Positions 561 through 28,145 of a DNA stretch of 64,000 nucleotides are shown here, in pieces; within the stretch, counting starts at the first letter, position 1, and each line of letters opens with the position of its first letter. This stretch comes from Candidatus Binatia bacterium. GTDB lineage: Bacteria; Desulfobacterota; Binatia; Bin18. The position numbers and the translations under genes were made by a program. The stretch lies in the NCBI GenBank assembly GCA_963664395.2, contig OY761159.2, positions 1,184,001 to 1,248,000 on the forward strand. The letters are read 5' to 3'. Under the pieces are notes generated by a model. That model worked only from the letters and a program-made list of their open reading frames with translations, had not been told where the DNA came from and ran no database searches.

Positions 561-899
561 ATGAACGGTCAATCTGCAGTAGAATTTGCGACTCCGGCCC
601 GAGTCCACATCGGTTTGTCAGTTCGTGACACGGAGCGCTCCGCCATCTTCTATCAACACCTGTTCGCCCAGGAGCCGACCAAGGTGCGCCCCCGCTATGC
701 GAAGTTCGAGGTTGCCGACCCGCCCCTGAACCTCAGCTTGGATGAAGATGCAAACCAACAGACCCGGCCCGGTTCGAGCGCTCACTTCGGGGTTCAGGTC
801 AAATCGACTGAGACCATCGCTCGGATTGCCGCCCGGTTGCTCCAGAGATCCAGGTCGTACACGCAACCATACATTGCATCCTTTTCCGAGACCACATAG
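561..899 (+). pseudogene. ArsI/CadI-family VOC metalloenzyme, C-terminally truncated
   Basis: RVHIGLSV..S..FY..LF..EPTKVRP.YAKF...DPPLNLSL and HFGVQV match the family; RBS AGGAGG. The CCYA..DK.W..DPDG C-terminal part is absent in all forward frames. Confidence 0.7.
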
Positions 900-924
900 T
901 TTTCAGACAGAGAGGGATGAAATC

Positions 925-1359
925 ATGCCGCATGAAACATTGTTGAAATTCAATTACCCGGACACCCTGCTGCGCGAGTATACGCACTGGGCGGTCTTAC
1001 TGCGTCCAAAGCAAGTAACGGTCGGTTCGCTTGTACTGGTGTGTAGCGATGAGGTCACGAGTATGGCGGAGGTCTCAGCCGAGGCGTTTGCCGAGTTGCA
1101 TACGGTCACTGCTGACCTTGAAGGGGTACTCACACAGACCTTTGCCTTTGACAAGATTAACTATCTGTTACTCATGATGGTGGATAAGCACGTCCACTTT
1201 CATGTGATTCCACGTTACGCCACTCCGCGAACGGCCTGTGGCGTTGAGTTTTCTGACAGGGCATGGCCCACGCCCCCTGACGTCACACAAGCCGTGGAGC
1301 TGACCGAGCAGCAGTTCGCGGAATTACTCCAACTGCTCCGGACGGCGTGGCCGGCATAG
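925..1359 (+). CDS. HIT family nucleotide hydrolase
   Basis: HVHFHVIPR histidine-triad motif, DKINYL; ATG 925 after GAGGGA. Confidence 0.9.
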   Translation: MPHETLLKFNYPDTLLREYTHWAVLLRPKQVTVGSLVLVCSDEVTSMAEVSAEAFAELHTVTADLEGVLTQTFAFDKINYLLLMMVDKHVHFHVIPRYATPRTACGVEFSDRAWPTPPDVTQAVELTEQQFAELLQLLRTAWPA

Positions 1360-1470
1360 CGGGATTGACACGCCCGGCCCGCTGGTGTCGGGGTCTGCTT
1401 CGCAGAAACATCGTGGTGAAAGTATACAGGGGGTTGCAAAATCTGCACTAACCGTTACTAAGCTGTAATT

Positions 1471-1791
1471 ATGATGCATGCTGCTGTGGATGTGATGTTG
1501 GTGGATGTGGAAGGTGGCGAGCAGCAGCCCCGCTATTCGTCGCACAACCCTTTCAAAGCGCTCCTCCGTGACGTTTTATCCGATGCCTTTGTGGTACGTG
1601 ATCTCGTGCGGAAGGGGAACAAGCTGTTTCTCTCTCAGCTGGAGCTGGACCGCATATGGTTTTTCTCAAAAGATGAGAGCCCGTTCAGCTTCCTGTGGAT
1701 CTGTCAGCACCTGGCTCTCGACTCGCAGAAAATCCAAGCCTTGTATTTCTCTGCTGAGCCGGTGACGATCCCGCGTTGGTGGGCGGCATAA
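1471..1791 (+). CDS. Hypothetical protein (106 aa)
   Basis: Clean ORF filling the intergenic space; L..VL.DA...W.FS....PFSF..IC..L pattern resembles conserved deltaproteobacterial hypothetical proteins. Confidence 0.65.
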   Translation: MMHAAVDVMLVDVEGGEQQPRYSSHNPFKALLRDVLSDAFVVRDLVRKGNKLFLSQLELDRIWFFSKDESPFSFLWICQHLALDSQKIQALYFSAEPVTIPRWWAA

Positions 1792-1808
1792 CAGATTGTG
1801 TTCGTCAC

Positions 1809-1847
1809 GAGAGCCGGGAAAGAGATTCGTCCTCTTCCCCAGCTCTC
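1809..1847. terminator. Hairpin between convergent genes
   Basis: GAGAGCCGGGAAAGAG-7 nt-CTCTTCCCCAGCTCTC imperfect stem. Confidence 0.5.
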
Positions 1848-1861
1848 ATAACAGGGCGAGT

Positions 1862-3700
1862 TTACTGCTCAGCCTTCACCTTGCGTAATGCCTCGGTCAA
1901 GAGCGGCACGACCTCGGCATAGTCGCCGACAATACCCAGATCGGCAGTCTTGAATATCGGCGCTTTCGCTTTTGTGTTGATGGCCACAATGGTGCCGGCC
2001 TTGCGCAAACCGACCATATGCTCGAACGCGCCTCGAATACCAATGGCAAAATACAGCTTCGGCGCGATCGCCCGGCCGGTGATGCCGACTTGATGTTGCC
2101 GGGGGAGCCACCCCAGGTCTGCAATATCCCGCGTCGAAGCCAGCGGCGCCCCACCTAATACATCGGCCAGGTGTTCGATCACAGGCAGATTCTCCGGCCC
2201 GCCGATGCCTTTCCCAACGCCAATGGCGATGTCCGCGGCATCCAGAGCCGCAGCTTTGGCTGCGTCGGCGCCCGTTTGTGACACGCGTTGCACCCGGCTG
2301 CGCACATCATCCTCAAGCGTCAGTCTTTCAATACGTGCCTGACGGCTGGGATCAGGCCGAGCCTGAGACAGCATGCCAGGTCGGACCGTTGCCATTTCGG
2401 GCGTCGTCTTAGACAGAATGGGCGCAACGATATTGCCGCCAAACGCGGGCTTGAGTTGCCGTAAGCGCCCCTGAGGGTCCACTTCCAAATCCACGCAATC
2501 GCCGGTGAGACCCAGGCCGAGCCGTGCGGCAACACGCGGGGCCAGATCGCGGCCAATCGCAGTTGAACCCAGCAGCAGCACCTTTGGTTTGTAGGCTTGA
2601 ATCGCCTGACTCAACAGCGCGGCATAGAGATCGGTATCATAGCAAGCCAGACGGGCATCATCGGCCTGGTATACCACGTCAGCGCCATGCGTGGCTAAAG
2701 ACGTGATATGGGCGTCGAGTCCGCTGCCGATCAAGACAGCACCTACTTCGCCGCCGTACTGCGCCGACAGCTCAACGGCTTTGCCTAAAAGCTCAAAGCT
2801 GACGGGCCGGAGGGTATTGCCTAAGGTTTCGGCAACAACCCAGACTGCTTTCCCCGGCTCGGGTTCAGCGATTCGTATCCCTTTTTCGCCGGCCGCGCTG
2901 TCATCCGCCCACGTCCCAAACAGACCGCGGGCTAAGAGTTCCTGGACCAGGGCGTCAATCTGTTCAGACAGTTCCCCTTCAAACACACGGTTTTCACGAC
3001 TGTCTTCGACAGTTTGGACAGACTCCACCCAAGTCGGCGAGCCTGCGGCTCCAAATTGCGAAAGGTCCGATGAGAGATCGCGGGCCGTCACCGTCTCAAT
3101 AGACTTCTCTTTGGCCGCTTCCCGCTCGGCCCTCTTGGGAAAGCGTTCCGGCGCCAGGTCTTCGGTAACAGAAATCAACGCCGGCAGGGGACAGTCAAGG
3201 ATATCAAAACCGCTATCGGTCTCACGTTCAACACGGATAGTCTTCCCGTCGGTGTCGCGCGTTAATGCTCCCACGCCCGTCACCTGCGGAATGCCGAGTA
3301 GCTCGGCCACCTCCGGTCCGACCTGACCGGTTTCTGCATCCGTACTATGCCGGCCACACAGGATGAGGTCATAGCCTTCTTTCTCGCACGCCAAGGCTAA
3401 AGCGCGCGCCGTGGCCAGCGTATCCGCGCCGGCAAAGGCCCGGTCCGTCAAATGCACCACCCGGTCCGCTCCCAGGGCCAAGCAATGCCGGAGAGCCTCC
3501 TCTGCCTGTGGCGGCCCCATAGTGAGCGCAACCACTTCGCCGCCGTGTTCTTCACGCAGCTCAAGCGCTTTCAATAATCCACGCACATCAAACGAACTGA
3601 CCTCGGACGGTACGCCCTCACGCTGGAGGGTTTTTGTTTCCGGGTCGAGCTGCATGGCCGAAACCACGGGGACTTGTTTCACCAACACAATACTCTTCAT
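1862..3700 (-). CDS. Fused electron transfer flavoprotein beta+alpha (FixA/FixB-like)
   Basis: N-half VLVKQVP, DTLATARAL, D.ETGQVG (ETF beta); C-half RDLAPRVAARL, PAFGG, QVGITG..IAPKLY (ETF alpha). Confidence 0.9.
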   Translation of the reverse strand: MKSIVLVKQVPVVSAMQLDPETKTLQREGVPSEVSSFDVRGLLKALELREEHGGEVVALTMGPPQAEEALRHCLALGADRVVHLTDRAFAGADTLATARALALACEKEGYDLILCGRHSTDAETGQVGPEVAELLGIPQVTGVGALTRDTDGKTIRVERETDSGFDILDCPLPALISVTEDLAPERFPKRAEREAAKEKSIETVTARDLSSDLSQFGAAGSPTWVESVQTVEDSRENRVFEGELSEQIDALVQELLARGLFGTWADDSAAGEKGIRIAEPEPGKAVWVVAETLGNTLRPVSFELLGKAVELSAQYGGEVGAVLIGSGLDAHITSLATHGADVVYQADDARLACYDTDLYAALLSQAIQAYKPKVLLLGSTAIGRDLAPRVAARLGLGLTGDCVDLEVDPQGRLRQLKPAFGGNIVAPILSKTTPEMATVRPGMLSQARPDPSRQARIERLTLEDDVRSRVQRVSQTGADAAKAAALDAADIAIGVGKGIGGPENLPVIEHLADVLGGAPLASTRDIADLGWLPRQHQVGITGRAIAPKLYFAIGIRGAFEHMVGLRKAGTIVAINTKAKAPIFKTADLGIVGDYAEVVPLLTEALRKVKAEQ

Positions 3701-3873
3701 AGACACGCCCACTCCCTGGATAAAAGAAGTGCGCAGCAGCCTATCTTGCTTGTCCGCACAGCGTCAACCAAGCCGGCGCAACGTTGTCTGAATCGCGGTT
3801 TCTGGACCTGGAATATATTGATGAGTTTCTCGTCTGGATTGAATGAGAGGGCAGGATCCTCGGTGGTAGCTAC

Positions 3874-4323
3874 TCACGCCCCGCGTCCGGGTGTATATTC
3901 GTCGGCAGGGAGGCTGTAGTAGGTAATGATCTTGCGCTCCTTAAACCACCAGCGACCGGCGTCTTTGATGAATTTGTCATCATAGCGACCAAAGGCGACC
4001 ATGGGCTTATCAGTCGATTTTGTGATGGCGTCGGCATCCAGATAGCAGGTTGAGGTGGCTTCGTTGCCCGAGACTTCAATTACGGGCGACTCGATTTTGT
4101 GGCGCAGAAAGCGCACGCCGTTCCGTAGCGTCGTGTCGTAGTTGGCGTACCAGCCCTTAATGGCGTCTCGGCCCTTATAGCGTATGTCACTTTCATACAC
4201 CGGAAGCAGAACCGCGTCGGTATGAAACAGCTCGGCGATTTCGTCTACCGTGCCACGGTCCACCACATGGCAGTAGGTGTGGAGCAGTTGCTGAATGGCA
4301 ATAATGTCGTCCGCGTAAGACAT
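3874..4323 (-). CDS. SnoaL-like/NTF2 family protein
   Basis: DIIAIQQLL..YC..VD, GRYDD.F....G.W.F.ER; RBS AGGAGG. Confidence 0.85.
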   Translation of the reverse strand: MSYADDIIAIQQLLHTYCHVVDRGTVDEIAELFHTDAVLLPVYESDIRYKGRDAIKGWYANYDTTLRNGVRFLRHKIESPVIEVSGNEATSTCYLDADAITKSTDKPMVAFGRYDDKFIKDAGRWWFKERKIITYYSLPADEYTPGRGA

Positions 4324-4345
4324 GCCCGGCCCTCCTGTTGCGTGT

Positions 4346-5203
4346 TTATTGTCTCCGTCCCCGTATCCGCAGTAATTCATTAATCGTCAGGTCGATGTCC
4401 TCATCTCGCAACAGTGGTGCAGCGACGCGCTTACGCCGGACCGTATCAAGACTGATGTCCGCCGTGATAAAATCCTCCTCGTAATAGCGGCCTTTGGCCA
4501 CACACTGTCCAAAAGGATCAATCACCTCTGAGCCGCCCCAGAATCCCACACCGTCCTCAAAGCCGACACGATTGGCATAGATCACAAACACGCCGAATGT
4601 TTCGGCATAGGCGCGATTCATCGACTCCCAATAGCGCGCGTTCTCGTCCCGTTCCGTGTTGTCAGCAATACCGCGTAACGGACTGGATGACGGACAGATA
4701 AGCAGCAGGGCTTGATCGAGGGCCGCAATACACACAGTAGACGGATGCCACAGATCTTCGCACACCAGGACTGCTGCGCGACCATATGGGGAGTCAAAGG
4801 CTCGAACGGTATTCCCACGAGCGAAATAGCGCTGCTCGTCAAACATGCCATAGGTTGGCAGATAGACCTTGCGATGGACGTGTTGGATGTCGCCCGCACT
4901 GAGATACACGGCTGAGTTATAAAAGCAAAAATCCGGGCTCTCTTCGACCAGTCCGGCCACGCAGGACACCGACTTGCTGAGCTCCTTCAGTCGAGTGAGC
5001 TCAGGCGCGTCTTGACGCAGGGCGACCGTCGCCACCATGTCGCGTAAGTGATAGCCGGTCAAACTCAATTCGGGAAAGATGAGGAGGGCAACGCGCTCAT
5101 CCTTGGCCTGGACAATAGCCTGTTCGTAGAGGGCCAGGTTTGCCGCAACATCTCCAAGGCGAGGGTTGATCTGGGCAATGCCGATTTTGAAGTGCGTTTT
5201 CAC
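4346..5203 (-). CDS. Carbon-nitrogen hydrolase (nitrilase superfamily, NAD-synthetase glutaminase-like)
   Basis: Glu-Lys-Cys triad: FPELSLTGY, HRKVYLPTYGMFDE.RYF, VCEDLW. Confidence 0.9.
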   Translation of the reverse strand: MKTHFKIGIAQINPRLGDVAANLALYEQAIVQAKDERVALLIFPELSLTGYHLRDMVATVALRQDAPELTRLKELSKSVSCVAGLVEESPDFCFYNSAVYLSAGDIQHVHRKVYLPTYGMFDEQRYFARGNTVRAFDSPYGRAAVLVCEDLWHPSTVCIAALDQALLLICPSSSPLRGIADNTERDENARYWESMNRAYAETFGVFVIYANRVGFEDGVGFWGGSEVIDPFGQCVAKGRYYEEDFITADISLDTVRRKRVAAPLLRDEDIDLTINELLRIRGRRQ

Positions 5204-22471: not shown

Positions 22472-23710
22472 ATGACCTCCGGCCACCGGCAATACCCCCC
22501 GGCGCGTATTGAGTCCCTGAAAGTGCAGAATTTCCGAGCGCTACGGGAAGTCGAGTTTAAGAACATCACGCCCATGACCGTGCTGCTTGGCCCCAATGGC
22601 AGCGGCAAGTCTACGGTTTTTGACGTATTCGCGTTTCTGGCCGAGTGCTTTGAGTTGGGGCTGCGCCGGGCTTGGGATAAGCGCGGGCGGGCCAGGGAAC
22701 TCAAGACGCGCGGCGCACAGGGACCGGTAACCATCGAGATCAAGTATCGTGAGCCCGGCTACCCGCTCATCACCTATCATCTGGCCGTTGATGAACGCGA
22801 CCGCGCGCCGGTGGTCGTGGAAGAGTGGCTGCGCTGGAAGCGGGGGAGTCGTGGGCAACCGTTTCGTTTCCTGGAATACGCACGCGGCCAAGGCCGAGCG
22901 GTTAGTGGCGAGATGCCGGACAAACAAGACAGGAGGGTAGATATTTCGCTCAAATCCCCTGACTTGCTGGCAGTCAACGCGCTTGGACAGTTCGCCGCGC
23001 ACCCGCGAGTAGCCGCGCTACGGGATTTTATCACCGGCTGGCATGTGTCCTATCTGTCGGCCGACAGCGCACGCGGGCAACCCGAGGCGGGCCCCCAGGA
23101 ACGGCTGAGCAAAACGGGCGACAATCTCGCCAACGTCATTCAATACCTGGCCGAACAGCATCCGGAACGCCTGGAGAGCATCTTCAGCGTCCTGCGCCGG
23201 CGGGTGCCGCGTATTGAGCGCGTGCTGACCGAGACTATGCCCGACGGGCGCTTGCTGTTGCAGATCAAGGACGCCCCCTTCAACAATCCGGTGCTGGCCC
23301 GTTTCGCTTCCGACGGCACCCTGAAGATGCTGGCCTATCTGGTTCTGCTATACGACCCCGAACCGCCGCCCTTTATTGGCATCGAAGAACCGGAGAACTT
23401 CCTGCACCCACGGTTGCTGTCCGAACTAGCCGAGGAATGCCGCGCGGCCAGTGAGCGCACGCAGTTGCTCGTGACTACCCATTCGCCATTTTTCCTGAAC
23501 GCTTTGCAGCCCAAAGAAGCGCGGGTCCTGTGGCGTGATGAGCAGGGCTATACACAGTCGCAACACGTGCCGGATTTACCTACGGTACGTGACTTCCTGG
23601 AGCACGGCGGGCTGCTGGGGAACTTGTGGATGGAGGGATATTTCGGCGTGGGTGATCCGCTGGTCAATCAAGGTGCGCCGACCGCTCCTCCACGAGGACC
23701 CGAGCGGTGA
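22472..23710 (+). CDS. ABC/AAA_21-type ATPase (module 1)
   Basis: LKVQNFR, Walker A GPNGSGKS, signature ASDGT, Walker B IGIEEPE, TTHSP. Confidence 0.92.
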
Positions 23711-24333
23711 TTGCCAGACACTTGGAATTGCTCGTTGAAGAGCCCTCAATGGAAGTGTTTCTGCGAGAACTCCTGCCGCGCATTTTGTCCGCAGACTGTG
23801 ATTTCGAGATTCATCCGTTTCAGGGAAAACTCGACCTGCTAGGCAATTTAGGAAATCGTTTGAGGGGCTACGCGCAGTGGTTGCCCGACGACTGGCGCAT
23901 CCTTGTGATAGTGGACCGCGATGACGATGACTGCCGGCAACTCAAGCAGCGGCTAGAAGATGTAGCGTCAGGAGCGAATCTACGCACGAGATCGCAAGCG
24001 GGAGGGCGGCCTTGGCAATTGGTCAATCGCGTTGTCATTGAAGAGTTGGAGGCGTGGTATTTCGGTGACTGGGAGGCTGTGCGTAGCGCCTATCCAAGAG
24101 TATCGCCGACCGTTCCGAATCAAAGCCGTTATCGCAATCCTGACTCAGTCCAGGGTGGAACCTGGGAGGCGTTCGAGCGAATACTGAAAGGGCGTGGGTA
24201 TTTCAGGACAGGATTACGCAAGATGGAAGCAGCGCGGACCGTTGCCGCCTATATTGACCCGGCGCGGAACCGTTCGCACAGCTTTACAAAATTCCGCGAC
24301 GCTCTCGTCGAGGCGACATCTTGTCAGCAGTGA
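23707..24333 (+). CDS. DUF4276 family, TOPRIM-like protein (module 1)
   Basis: [37 protein letters not shown]; GTGA overlap with the ATPase. Confidence 0.85.
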
Positions 24334-24374: not shown

Positions 24375-25439
24375 ATGGACTTCGGAGTTGGCTTTCAGTC
24401 GCATATTCACAACGGATGGAAACACGCCCTGCTGGCCGAGCAGATGGGGTTTACGCATGCCTGGTTTGTGGACTCGCAGTTGATCACCTCGGATGTGTAT
24501 GCCTGCATGACCCTGGCCGCCGCGCATACAACAACAATTCGACTCGGAACCGGCGTCACCATTGTGGGGACGCGGATTCCACCCGTCATTGCGCATTCTA
24601 TTGCCACCATCAATCAGCTTGCGCCCGGTCGGGTGATTCTCGGTCTGGGCACCGGTCATACGGCCTGGCGGACCATGGGCATGCCACCGGTTTCGCTCGC
24701 AGAGTTCCGGCATGCGGTCGAGGTTTGCCAGGGTCTGCTCCGGGGTGAGACTGTCCCCTATCACGAGCGCGGCCGGCAGGGCCGGATTCGGTTCATGGAT
24801 GTCGAACACGGCTATATCAACGTGCATGAGCGCATCCCCATCTATCTGGCGGCCTCGCATCCCAAGGCTCAGGCGCTGGCCGGTGAGCTGGGCGACGGCC
24901 TGTTGACCCTGAGCCTGCTCTCGCCCGAGTCGCTCAGCCGTAATCTGGCGTCGGTCGCAAGGGGCTGGGAGAGCCGGGCCGGCGGGAAACCGGCCGACTT
25001 CGGTGTGGTCACGCTCGGCATCTCCTGCGTGTTGCAACCCGGCGAGGCCGTGAATAGTCCGCGTGTGTTGTCGCGGGTCGGCCCGCGCATTGCGGTGTCC
25101 CTGCACTATGCCTATGAAGTCGCCAAACAGGGCAAAGCGGTGCCGCCTTTTTTACAGCCCTTTCTGACTCCGGACTACCAGCGCTACCTGGACGACCGCT
25201 GGGAAGACATTCATGCCACGCATTCACGCTTTCTGCATCCGGGCGAAGAAAAATTCATCACCCCCGAGACCATTCGGGCCATGAGCCTGACCGGCTCGCG
25301 CGATGAAATTCTCGAACGCCTGGTTCAGCTTGAAGCCGCCGGACTCACCCAGATGGTTGTCTCACCCCCGTGGGGCCTGGTGGAGGAAAGCATCGTGGAG
25401 TTCGCCCGAGAGATTATCGGACCGTATAGAAACCGATAA
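24375..25439 (+). CDS. LLM-class flavin-dependent oxidoreductase
   Basis: AEQMGF..AW..DS, T..IRLGTGV, APGRVILGLGTG, IPIYLAAS.PK...LAGE..DG. Confidence 0.92.
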   Translation: MDFGVGFQSHIHNGWKHALLAEQMGFTHAWFVDSQLITSDVYACMTLAAAHTTTIRLGTGVTIVGTRIPPVIAHSIATINQLAPGRVILGLGTGHTAWRTMGMPPVSLAEFRHAVEVCQGLLRGETVPYHERGRQGRIRFMDVEHGYINVHERIPIYLAASHPKAQALAGELGDGLLTLSLLSPESLSRNLASVARGWESRAGGKPADFGVVTLGISCVLQPGEAVNSPRVLSRVGPRIAVSLHYAYEVAKQGKAVPPFLQPFLTPDYQRYLDDRWEDIHATHSRFLHPGEEKFITPETIRAMSLTGSRDEILERLVQLEAAGLTQMVVSPPWGLVEESIVEFAREIIGPYRNR

Positions 25440-25529
25440 CCGAGCGGACATCACTTGATTTCGCCGAGGGGTTTGGAATCAGGGGCTGAAACCGCTAGGC
25501 TGAGAGCCACTCTCTCGGAAGGACAAAAT

Positions 25530-26378
25530 ATGGATACGACGCAGGGCGAAGCAGTACGCTATGAACAGGTCGGACATATAGGTTGGCTGCGGCTCAACCG
25601 GGCGGACAAGCTGAACGCCATGACGCCCCAGATGTGGCAGGAGTTACGGGAACTCGGCCATACCCTGTCTACCGAAGCGCACGCGCGCGAAAACCAGTTA
25701 CGGGTGCTGGTCGTGATTGGCGAAGGCCGCGCGTTCTCGACCGGCATCGATACTGCGGCCTTTGGCGGCACGGCCTTTGGCGGACACGAACGCGAGCCCG
25801 TGCCCGAGGTGGTGGCCGACGATGATCCCATGGTGACCATTATCCAGGGCTTTCAGGAGGCATTCACCTGGCTTGAAGAAGCTCCCTATCCGACCATTGC
25901 CGCGGTCCGAGGCTATGCTTTAGGCGCGGGCATGCAGATGGCGCTGGCCTGCGATATCCGGGTGGTCGCCCGCGGCAGCCGGCTGGGCTTGCTGGAGCAT
26001 CGCTACGGCCTCATCCCCGACCTGGGCGGCACCCAACGCCTGCCCCGGCTGGTCGGCAGCGGCAAGGCCAAGGAACTCATCTTCACCGCCCAGCAGATTG
26101 AGGCGGAAGAGGCATATCGGATCGGTCTGGCCGAACAGCTCGTTGACGACGAGGCATTGGAGGCGACCGTGACGAGCCTGGCGGAACAACTGGCCAGCCA
26201 GCCGCCGCTGGCCGTGCGCGCTGCCAAGCGGGCGATTGATGCCAGTCAACATCTTTCAGTCCGTGACGGATTACTGCTGGAAGCCAAGAGCCAGGCCGTC
26301 TGCATTCGCTCCCAGGATGCCAAAGAAGCGGTTCGAGCGTTTATGGAAAAACGGATGCCCCAGTACTCAGGACAGTAA
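25530..26378 (+). CDS. Enoyl-CoA hydratase/isomerase
   Basis: LNR.DKLNA, GRAFSTGID, G.ALGAG...ALACDIR, PDLGGTQRL.RLVG. Confidence 0.92.
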   Translation: MDTTQGEAVRYEQVGHIGWLRLNRADKLNAMTPQMWQELRELGHTLSTEAHARENQLRVLVVIGEGRAFSTGIDTAAFGGTAFGGHEREPVPEVVADDDPMVTIIQGFQEAFTWLEEAPYPTIAAVRGYALGAGMQMALACDIRVVARGSRLGLLEHRYGLIPDLGGTQRLPRLVGSGKAKELIFTAQQIEAEEAYRIGLAEQLVDDEALEATVTSLAEQLASQPPLAVRAAKRAIDASQHLSVRDGLLLEAKSQAVCIRSQDAKEAVRAFMEKRMPQYSGQ

Positions 26379-26410
26379 TCGTACTCTGGACAGGAAAAGG
26401 AGGCGGGACA

Positions 26411-27232
26411 ATGACAGACCACGGCTATGCCCGACCGGATATGCTGGCAGAGACCCAATGGCTCGCGGCGCATCTCCAGGACGATAACCTGCGAATCGTC
26501 GATTGTGATAATCGTGAAGCCTACCGTCGCGCCCATATTCCGGGCGCGATTCCCGTGCGCGGCCATCACTATCTCAAGGAGAAAGAAGGCGCAGCGCATA
26601 TCATGGGTCCGGACCAGTTTGCGCAGACCATGGGTGAGATGGGCATTGGGGATGACACGCTGGTGATTGCCTATGATGGCTTCAGCGGTCTGTACGCTAC
26701 CCGCTTCTGGTGGGCGCTGCACTATTACGGCCACACCAATGCCAGAGTGTTGAACGGCGGCTGGGAGGCCTGGCTGGCCGAGGGGCGGTCCGTGACAAAC
26801 GCCTCGTCCCGTCCGGCCAAGGCGAGCTTTACGCCCCAGGCCAATGAGGACCTGATCGCCCGCTGGGAACAGGTCCAGGCGGCCATTGCCTCTGATAGCG
26901 TGATTCTCGATGTGCGCTCGGATGCGGAGTGGAGCGGCGAAAATGCCCGTGGCACCAAGCGTGGCGGGCGGATTCCCGGCGCGGTCCATCTCGAATGGCT
27001 CAACTATATTGACCCCAAGACAAAGAAGTTCAAACCCGCGGACGAACTCCGCCCCCTGTTTGAGCAGGTCGGGGTCAGACCCGAGTGTGAGGTCGTCACC
27101 TATTGACAGGGCGGCATCCGTGCGGCGCACGGATTGTTCACCCTGCGGCTGCTCGGTTTTGACAAGGTGCGCAATTACGATGCCTCCTGGGCCGAATGGG
27201 GCAATCGCGAGGATCTCCCACTGGAGAAGTAG
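26411..27232 (+). CDS. Tandem-domain rhodanese/sulfurtransferase, putative selenoprotein (Sec at TGA 27104-27106)
   Basis: [26 protein letters not shown]; reading through TGA gives [13 protein letters not shown]...[20 protein letters not shown], the canonical rhodanese active-site loop and C-terminal signature. Confidence 0.9.
27107..27145 (+). promoter_or_regulatory. Bacterial SECIS-like stem-loop
   Basis: CAGGG-CGGC-ATCCGTGC-GGC-GCACGGAT-TGTTCA-CCCTG immediately 3' of the UGA: 8-bp perfect upper stem with a G-containing loop and a 5-bp lower stem. Confidence 0.8.
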
Positions 27233-27251
27233 GCACGCTGCGTGTCTTCAT

Positions 27252-28145
27252 ATGACTGGATACAGACAACCGCTGTGGCTCCTGGCTGTTCTCCTCATCT
27301 GCTTTTTTCTCTCCAGCCAGGTTTGTAGCGCTCAGCCTGCGGCTGAGTCCGAACCACACGGCAGCCTGCTCATACGGACTCCGGGAGAGCAAGACCACCA
27401 AGACCGGTCGGGGGAGGTCTCGGCCACAGTTTATAGCCTCGAACCCGAGACGCTCGTTGCTCGGGCGACCTTGGGCACACCCGTCTCTCTGCCACCTGGG
27501 TCCTACCGGGTTGAACTCGATGTTCTCGGCGGAACGGTTTCACGCGAGCGTGTCCTGGTACGAGCCGGCCGGACAAGTACGGTCATTCTCAGCGAAGTCG
27601 CGGTCCTCCAGGTCAACGTGCTGGACAAAAAGGGGCAGGATATCGGCTTGGGCGTTGAGGTCTACGACGGTGTTTCAAACGAGCTGCTCGGAGAATTCCT
27701 GAGCGGAGAACGCATCCTGGCTCAACCCGGTCTGGTTGATGTCAAGGTCGCCGTCCCACCCCAGAGCCAGTGGTGGCGCGCTGTTGAGCTTCTGCGCGGC
27801 GGACTACGGGAACTGACGCTGCGCGAGCGCGTTCGGGGCGAACTCCGGGTTCATCCCAGGCTGGCCGGAAAAGATGTGAGTCCGCTGACCCACGTCATTA
27901 TTTACGCAGCCGGGACGCAAAAAGAGATTGCCCGTAGCGAGCCTGGTCAGAAACATCGCTTTTCCCTGGAGACCGGCAGCTACGATGTGTTTGTGGCCAA
28001 CCCGACCGGACGCGGGAAGCCGTTCGTGCTGGAACGCGCGGAGGTCCCGGATGAAACCCCGGTCGAAAAAGACGTTCATCTGGACCAACTGAATGGACCG
28101 TCCGACCAGCCCCCGCCACCCTCTTCGGAAACGCACGCCCTCTAA
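27252..28145 (+). CDS. Hypothetical secreted protein with repeated PEGA/carboxypeptidase-regulatory-like beta domains
   Basis: Signal peptide (..VCSA/Q); recurring L.PG.Y.V motifs (LPPGSYRV, AQPGLVDV, LETGSYDV). Confidence 0.7.
   Translation: MTGYRQPLWLLAVLLICFFLSSQVCSAQPAAESEPHGSLLIRTPGEQDHQDRSGEVSATVYSLEPETLVARATLGTPVSLPPGSYRVELDVLGGTVSRERVLVRAGRTSTVILSEVAVLQVNVLDKKGQDIGLGVEVYDGVSNELLGEFLSGERILAQPGLVDVKVAVPPQSQWWRAVELLRGGLRELTLRERVRGELRVHPRLAGKDVSPLTHVIIYAAGTQKEIARSEPGQKHRFSLETGSYDVFVANPTGRGKPFVLERAEVPDETPVEKDVHLDQLNGPSDQPPPPSSETHAL

Follow-up and report, generated by a model that had tools for sequence, protein, structure and literature searches.

Recoding of UGA to selenocysteine (Sec) by SelB and a Sec insertion sequence (SECIS) is established in bacteria for formate dehydrogenase H of E. 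coli, and bacterial SECIS elements are searched for as hairpins shortly 3' of the UGA with a G in the apical loop. Rhodaneses are found in the catalogues of Sec-containing families as well. The 2005 Sargasso Sea report (PMC1088965) lists a "Rhodanase-related sulfurtransferase" (COG2897), with three sequences, among the new selenoprotein families, and the sequences in its supplement share the motif TYuQ(G/A)G(I/V)RAAH (in one version TYuQAGVRAAH), with a CGTGC-GGC-GCA hairpin immediately 3' of the TGA. In two of these sequences, read by eye, both partners of the outermost core pair are exchanged, from C:G to G:C and from C:G to A:T. The Global Ocean Sampling (GOS) survey of 2008 (PMC2398784) has eight Sec sequences in the rhodanase-related sulfurtransferase family, a 2022 review lists the family too, and a 2026 review (PMC13188914) calls it "rhodanese-like form 4, UxxG." Here we analyze a 64,000-nucleotide stretch of the Candidatus Binatia bacterium contig OY761159.2 (positions 1,184,001 to 1,248,000), hereafter called the window, in which the open reading frame (ORF) 26411-27232 is very probably an intact gene for a cytoplasmic tandem-domain rhodanese with the catalytic Cys replaced by Sec.

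Like the Rhodanase-related sulfurtransferases (COG2897/SseA, cd01449), the window gene encodes a tandem rhodanese with the predicted Sec at the catalytic Cys of the second repeat. It has the TYuQ(G/A)G(I/V)RAAH motif of the Sargasso Sea members and, compared by eye with the sequences in the supplement, nearly the same GGC-loop hairpin, and its U232-Q-G-G fits form 4, UxxG, as given in the 2026 review. By motif and hairpin, the gene is thus assigned to this catalogued family (COG2897, form 4, UxxG). The Sargasso Sea members are short marine metagenome fragments of 74 to 160 residues, whereas the window gene is full-length and lies in a near-complete Binatia genome. The single-domain Sec rhodaneses (NF041203 rhodanese_LYCAU, form 3 CxU, and forms 1, 2, and 5 of the 2026 review) also have a rhodanese domain with Sec but consist of one domain of ~126 residues or are fusions, with Sec in CxU, UxxS, or UxxxxU; NF041203 matched the window protein with 29.4 bits, compared to a cutoff of 115 bits, and on another part of the protein. 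The first-pass annotation of this DNA had called Sec-rhodaneses a recognized class, which is correct (catalogues from 2005 onward), and had implied novelty, which is not supported: family, motif, and hairpin were already in the 2005 supplement. The kind of enzyme is not new; that the gene is universal in Binatia has, as far as we searched, not been published, and the literature searched contained no paper linking Binatia or Binatota with selenocysteine or a selenoprotein. A search for characterized natural Sec-rhodaneses found none reported in the titles or abstract openings listed. The elements of the gene are as follows:

26397-26403, plus strand: Shine-Dalgarno-like AAGGAGG, read from the sequence, 7 nt 5' of the start codon
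26411-27232, plus strand: full coding sequence of the predicted Sec rhodanese, from ATG 26411, 273 residues with U232, stop codon TAG 27230-27232
26453-26779, plus strand: N-terminal rhodanese domain, non-catalytic repeat (residues 15-123, best Pfam stretch)
26873-27214, plus strand: C-terminal catalytic rhodanese domain (residues ~155-268, from the 1qxn alignment and the model elements)
27104-27106, plus strand: UGA, predicted Sec codon, codon 232, at the catalytic Cys position (alignment to 1uar and 3hzu)
27117-27133, plus strand: SECIS hairpin, stem TCCGTGC / GCACGGA, loop GGC 27124-27126
27118-27132, plus strand: invariant SECIS core of 6 bp (from pair counts)
27107-27145, plus strand: lower stem CAGGG 27107-27111 / CCCTG 27141-27145 plus the eighth upper pair A27116:T27134, present here, not conserved

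The rhodanese ORF has 231 codons up to TGA 27104-27106, its sole in-frame TGA, and continues with 41 sense codons to TAG 27230-27232. The first-pass annotation had placed this stop at the catalytic Cys with 41 sense codons behind it, and its coordinates are confirmed. When TGA was translated as U, PF00581 was matched in two stretches (E = 2.6e-37), which gives the tandem rhodanese architecture of the SseA/TST type. PDB entry 1uar (Thermus thermophilus) aligned to residues 5-273 (E = 4.6e-46) and 3hzu (M. tuberculosis SseA) matched with E = 6.6e-42; U232 is opposite the catalytic Cys in both alignments. The single-domain PDB match 1qxn covers residues 155-268. Y88-D89 of the N-terminal domain was invariant in 17 homologues, and on our reading of the alignment, Asp89 probably takes the place of Cys there. 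An AlphaFold model of the 273-residue protein, built on 17 homologues, had a mean predicted local distance difference test (pLDDT) score of 91.7 and a template modeling (TM) score of 0.94 to 1uar. The model has the catalytic cradle typical of rhodaneses, formed in this order by strand 228-231, U232, a short loop, and helix 236-247, and the elements of the catalytic domain span helix 152-159 through helix 259-263. The Cys tandem rhodaneses (1UAR of Thermus thermophilus, 3HZU of Mycobacterium tuberculosis SseA, CysA2/CysA3, and 1E0C of Azotobacter vinelandii RhdA) likewise have two repeats and a catalytic residue that comes after a beta-strand and opens a six-residue loop with a helix behind it; they share 31-35% identity with the window protein at TM-scores of 0.88-0.94. 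They differ in having Cys rather than Sec, in their loops (CRIAERS in 1uar and CRIGERS in 3hzu versus UQGGIRA in the window), and in that no RNA hairpin is required.

If the TGA were a genuine stop codon, the gene would be a pseudogene or encode a natural 231-residue protein; alternatively, the TGA would be a sequencing or assembly error. Gene callers indeed end the frame at the TGA: among the 72 best database matches (65-93% identity), 66 are fragments of 167-262 amino acids covering 61-85% of the query, as expected from the earlier remark that standard pipelines would call a truncated gene. In public databases the rhodanese is mostly stored cut at 231-233 amino acids, without the catalytic residue, and the names among the matches include "sulfurtransferase [Candidatus Binatia bacterium]." However, according to the model, a product stopping at residue 231 would be devoid of the catalytic residue, the active-site loop, helix 236-247, strand 253-256, and helix 259-263. 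Moreover, the same TGA recurs in other genomes. When 61 genomes, the window's own included, were searched for the rhodanese, all 38 genomes of the same order carried a copy with exactly one TGA, in alignments reaching to about residue 273 and with identities of 69-100%. These were 28/28 genomes in the genus (the window genome included; one copy is partial, at a contig end), 9/9 in other genera of the family, and 1/1 in a second family. One genome of the order has a second copy (54% identity), with a TGA too. The TGA is in the same catalytic column in all 39 orthologous copies and is followed by 41-47 conserved codons; a 40th locus (L053, 31% identity) was dropped, its TGA being near the start of the match and off the catalytic column. 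In the 23 genomes from other families of the class, the TGA form was found in none; they had Cys paralogues of at most 41% identity or no match at E = 1e-30. Two Cys paralogues of this sort, with 38-40% identity, are also present in the genome of the window.

Sequencing data gave the same result. The stretch is present, in full or in part, in twenty public runs from ten studies, and four of these runs, all of them as contigs, were compared over 26200-27500. A DNA run (X3) from a study other than that of the best-matching runs gave contigs 26882-27124 and 27104-27500 with 0 differences; the absence of variants at 27104-27106 pertains to this run only. Since the contigs of this DNA run have no differing letter across the TGA, the TGA is not an assembly error, and a sequencing error, which had been named as a possible refutation, is excluded by these contigs together with the TGA in 38/38 genomes of the order. 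With the same TGA in many Chloroflexota as well (see below) and the 41 codons after it conserved as protein, the comparative data already refute a pseudogene, a truncated protein, or an error, judged from the sequences compared, and we regard the chance of any of these as negligible.

In the four metagenome/metatranscriptome runs, the summed contig depth was 836-5098 in the bin 27080-27123, compared to 0.4-65 in the preceding bin. Many contigs of other community members match the UGA-plus-hairpin island only and diverge on both sides, and contigs often end at 27124 or begin at 27104. The conserved UGA-hairpin island seems to break assemblies.

A one-genome-per-species scan for relatives yielded 80 loci, which by record title were Binatia metagenome-assembled genomes (MAGs) at 70-93% identity and mostly Chloroflexota (Dehalococcoidia, Tepidiformaceae, SAR202) at 47-56%. 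The catalytic column of the 76 loci with a CQ(G/A)GIRAA(H/Q)-type motif was TGA in 33, TGC in 40, and TGT in 3; thus, 43 loci have a Cys codon at the Sec column within the same CQGGIRAA motif. Sixteen full-length database homologues also have C at this column; three of these full-length records (P0004, P0006, P0007; 73-75% identity) are protein records only, with C printed at the Sec column, so that the Cys form is putative there. The alternation of TGA with TGC/TGT that had been asked of the relatives is therefore present, and a hairpin accompanies the TGA, as described in the following.

The 8-bp upper stem in the window consists of ATCCGTGC (27116-27123) and GCACGGAT (27127-27134), which enclose GGC 27124-27126. 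The hairpin starts 11 nt after the UGA, and the GGC loop begins 18 nt after the A of the TGA. Like the SECIS of E. coli formate dehydrogenase H, it is a hairpin within the coding sequence, immediately 3' of the UGA, with a G in an apical loop about 18 nt downstream; it differs in its three-base GGC loop and its perfect GC-rich stem with no predicted bulge. A hairpin found in a single sequence proves nothing by itself. This hairpin, however, also encodes I236-R-A-A-H-G241, and its codons can be compared. When the codons of 38 full-length orthologues were aligned, the amino acid was invariant at 74 degenerate codons, of which only 7 were nucleotide invariant: TAT231 and six consecutive codons, 236-241 (ATC CGT GCG GCG CAC GGA), against 0/67 of the others. 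Codons 236-240 were ATC CGT GCG GCG CAC in 58/59 unique Sec segments from Binatia and Chloroflexota, and codon 241 was GGN in 58/59. In 43 Cys segments with the peptide I-R-A-A-(H/Q), the codons are free (Arg is CGC in 18, CGG in 15, AGG in 5, CGT in 3, and CGA in 2), and residue 241 is mostly Ala, Ser, or Thr. Codons 236-241 are thus frozen in the Sec forms and free in the Cys forms; therefore, the hairpin fixes the synonymous sites and dictates Gly241.

The link between hairpin and TGA was also evident from the structure itself. The structure demanded had a stem of 6 bp or more without a bulge and with no more than one G:U pair, and a loop of 3-8 nt that starts 15-30 nt after the codon and has a G at its first or second base; 11 rows without the CQGGIRA-type motif (distant Cys paralogues and L053) were dropped beforehand. 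Such a hairpin was found in 63/63 unique Sec segments versus 2/45 Cys segments. Four divergent Sec copies have different hairpins at the same offset. Two of them, sister Dehalococcoidia copies (L129, 3703-3750, and L146, 3697-3744), are sister rows inside the main Sec clade; they have lost the canonical hairpin and have a new 7-bp hairpin about 7 nt further 3'. The third (L111, 3682-3729) is a Sec copy among Cys forms with a hairpin of its own, and the fourth (L063; G212:C37), also with its own hairpin, is a paralogue of 38% identity with the motif UQSGVRS. Conversely, two Cys forms nested in the Sec clade (L083 and L084) have lost the stem and are, by this placement, probable Cys reversions. 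The four copies with replaced hairpins would illustrate SECIS turnover.

Several results weigh against the reading of the gene as one for a Sec rhodanese, and we set them against the evidence given so far. In a single-sequence fold of 76 nt, the hairpin was unremarkable (z = -0.85; 33/200 shuffles folded at least as well), and an Rfam search of 26900-27400 gave chance matches only (E of at least 0.5) and no bacterial SECIS family. Covariation in the hairpin had been proposed as a check along with the Cys/TGA alternation; the latter is seen, the former is not: 55 canonical hairpins, from which L111, L129, and L146 were left out for their differing hairpins and L063 as a distant paralogue, showed no covariation because the six core pairs never vary. 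These pairs were present in 55/55 hairpins, the seventh in 50/55, and the eighth (alignment columns 13/31) in 9/55; in the lower stem, 78.9% of the cells were paired, and no measure was above shuffles. Hence, of the hairpin as first drawn, the coordinates and the GGC loop 18 nt after the UGA hold, and the eighth pair and the lower stem do not show up as conserved elements. Support for the structure therefore comes from the freezing of synonymous sites, the contrast between Sec and Cys forms, the replaced hairpins of the four copies, and the two compensatory changes read by eye in the 2005 supplement. Contigs from RNA libraries of two studies cover 26200-27124 and 27104-27500 and, being contigs, are no proof of transcription or its level. 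No NCBIfam model reached its cutoff for the rhodanese; the best, the equivalog for 3-mercaptopyruvate sulfurtransferase (3-MST; NF008557), scored 140.7 bits. Since this is below the cutoff of 250 bits, the protein should not be named an SseA/3-MST orthologue. In addition, no neighbor is common across phyla in the loci compared, and the largest neighbor clusters belong to Cys loci only. Finally, our data show that the gene is intact, that the UGA is conserved at the catalytic column, that the hairpin goes with the UGA, that the Sec machinery is present, and what the fold is; binding of SelB, actual incorporation of selenium, and the substrates are the parts of the scheme that we infer.

If the UGA is decoded as Sec, the organism should possess the machinery for it. 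Indeed, the genome (14 contigs, 5.04 Mb) contains, all above curated cutoffs, SelA (526 bits), the SelB-specific wing domain (80.7 bits, in an open frame of 677 amino acids), SelD (316 bits), and a tRNA-Sec (66.7 bits) that has the anticodon TCA and adjoins selA. The search for selA, selB, selC, and selD suggested at the outset thus came out in favor of recoding. SelD is the C-terminal half of a 755-amino-acid protein (G000:C1:4504791-4508708; L003:1393-3657, minus strand), of which the N-terminal 317 residues are a pyridine-nucleotide-disulfide oxidoreductase domain.

An open, conserved frame after the UGA would fit any kind of read-through, and the codon might be read by a suppressor tRNA, by near-cognate insertion of Trp or Cys, or in a reassigned code. 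However, TGA is the commonest stop among ORFs of at least 400 codons (570/1539), and therefore the genetic code is not reassigned. Furthermore, 3 of the 39 orthologous copies terminate on a second TGA, so that TGA doubles as a stop in that very gene. A general read-through is also at odds with a position-specific hairpin that tracks the TGA, with the complete Sec machinery in the genome, and with homologues that have Cys at the column, as is typical of Sec/Cys pairs. Decoding of the UGA as something other than Sec is thus very improbable, and the recoding proposed in the first-pass annotation is supported by the conserved TGA column, the hairpin tied to it, and the Sec machinery.

In the scheme favored here, the UGA at 27104-27106 would be recoded during translation and the 41 further codons translated. 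The hairpin in the mRNA, with its GC-rich stem of 6-7 bp and GGC loop, is presumably bound by SelB with Sec-tRNA(Sec), by which Sec would be delivered to the ribosome. The same 18 nt encode the start of the active-site helix, and since constraints on RNA and protein overlap there, the sequence is frozen. By analogy with Cys rhodaneses, the selenolate of Sec232 would be located where strand 228-231 ends, within the six-residue loop U-Q-G-G-I-R. As a nucleophile, it could accept sulfane sulfur from thiosulfate, a persulfide, or a similar donor, form a Se-S intermediate, and pass the sulfur to a thiophilic acceptor. Sulfurtransferase activity via a Se-S adduct on Sec232 is therefore what fold and active-site position would suggest.

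A genuine selenoprotein could also handle selenium instead of sulfur. Sec232 would then carry a Se-Se adduct (perselenide) and hand the selenium to selenophosphate synthetase or to detoxification, in the service of a large selenoproteome. Cys rhodanese is able to bind selenium in vitro, no genome of the order searched (38/38) lacks the Sec-rhodanese, and SelD is fused to an oxidoreductase domain; there is also a weak, partial NCBIfam match to the selenite/tellurite-reduction rhodanese ExtH (58 bits, cutoff 200 bits). The genome itself looks selenoprotein-rich. A rough screen for coding frames broken by a TGA with a SECIS-style hairpin behind it gave 104 candidates, with the rhodanese second in rank. 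For 17 of 20 candidates hand-picked by motif, the match to a known (seleno)protein family extends across the TGA, and 9 of these matches exceed curated cutoffs. The families, with candidate Sec positions, are UGSC (6), AhpD/YciW-like (5), PrdB/GrdB-like (3), SelW-like (1), glutaredoxin (1), and thioredoxin-like lipoprotein (1), at loci L156-L172. There may thus be at least 17 further selenoprotein genes. Several of the candidates have GGC, GTC, or GTG loops 18-21 nt after the TGA, like the rhodanese. A Sec formate dehydrogenase was sought for comparison of the SECIS, but 0/18 formate-dehydrogenase-like matches had an in-frame stop.

On the other hand, the rhodanese gene is not linked to selD, selA, or selB, which are 1.3-3.3 Mb away on contig C1, and nothing related to selenium is found in its neighborhood. 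The closest structures are thiosulfate sulfurtransferases, and carrying selenium does not need a Sec residue. We therefore consider it unlikely that the enzyme handles selenium. The stricter proposal, namely, a Sec-rhodanese dedicated to carrying selenium rather than to faster sulfur transfer, with a Se-Se adduct on Sec232 feeding the oxidoreductase-fused SelD, is less likely still. If it were true, it would explain why the gene is retained in every genome of a selenoprotein-rich order without a Sec formate dehydrogenase and why a 17-nt hairpin next to the UGA, which also serves as active-site codons, is frozen in Binatia and Chloroflexota alike.

With the UGA recoded as Sec, SECIS and active-site codons overlap at this locus, which makes it a clean example from nature: six codons are fixed and Gly241 is imposed by the hairpin, and the two constraints are relaxed once Sec reverts to Cys. 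The known working principles of selenoproteins are not changed by this finding. The protein occurs universally in the Binatia, an uncultured lineage from soil and groundwater, and is common in Dehalococcoidia. The practical value lies in annotation: hundreds of records would be corrected by a dedicated model in which the Sec column is marked.

A quick maximum-likelihood tree of 119 rows (LG+G4, with support from the SH-like approximate likelihood ratio test [SH-aLRT] only) placed the 40 Binatia-type rows in one clade with a support of 95. This clade is nested in a larger one of 63 rows (61 Sec forms and 2 Cys forms), which otherwise consists of Chloroflexota and has a support of only 80. The tree requires at least five changes between Sec and Cys. 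Some MAG records with the Binatia-type gene stand under other titles (L073, L077, L078, L080, and L082), namely, Methylomirabilota, "uncultured Enterobacteriaceae," and Deltaproteobacteria; the public labels of the Binatia-type lineage are inconsistent.

The rhodanese gene is part of a co-oriented row of luciferase-like monooxygenase, enoyl-CoA hydratase, rhodanese, and a 297-amino-acid protein. The genes around it are as follows:

23707-24333, plus strand: DUF4276 protein (E = 2.6e-33), just upstream of the monooxygenase gene
24375-25439, plus strand: luciferase-like monooxygenase (Pfam PF00296)
25455-26378, plus strand: enoyl-CoA hydratase (Pfam PF00378)
27252-28145, plus strand: 297-amino-acid protein with a signal-peptide-like N-terminus, 19 nt after the rhodanese stop codon, no Pfam family

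From the monooxygenase and the crotonase, a role in organosulfur or selenium catabolism had been suspected. This has little support because these neighbors are kept only in part of the Binatia and none is shared across phyla. Each of the two is beside the rhodanese in 24/120 loci, all of Sec type. Among the 41 Binatia-type loci, 8 of which have flanks of 300 nt only and cannot be judged for upstream neighbors, 24 have the enoyl-CoA hydratase and 23 the monooxygenase; the remaining monooxygenase locus is L121, which has a Binatia title and groups with the Chloroflexota forms in the tree. Neither gene was found in any Chloroflexota-titled locus. By tblastn, the gene for the 297-amino-acid protein comes immediately after the rhodanese in 33 of these 41 loci, the second family included, and in 0 Chloroflexota loci; 5 of the 33 matches are short and partial, at the edges of 300-nt flanks (E = 1e-6 to 4e-13). 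A Pfam search with this protein gave nothing below E = 0.09, and its Atlas neighbors are Binatota-only hypothetical proteins with weak hints of a beta-sandwich. Its gene is the only neighbor of the rhodanese that is kept across the Binatia.

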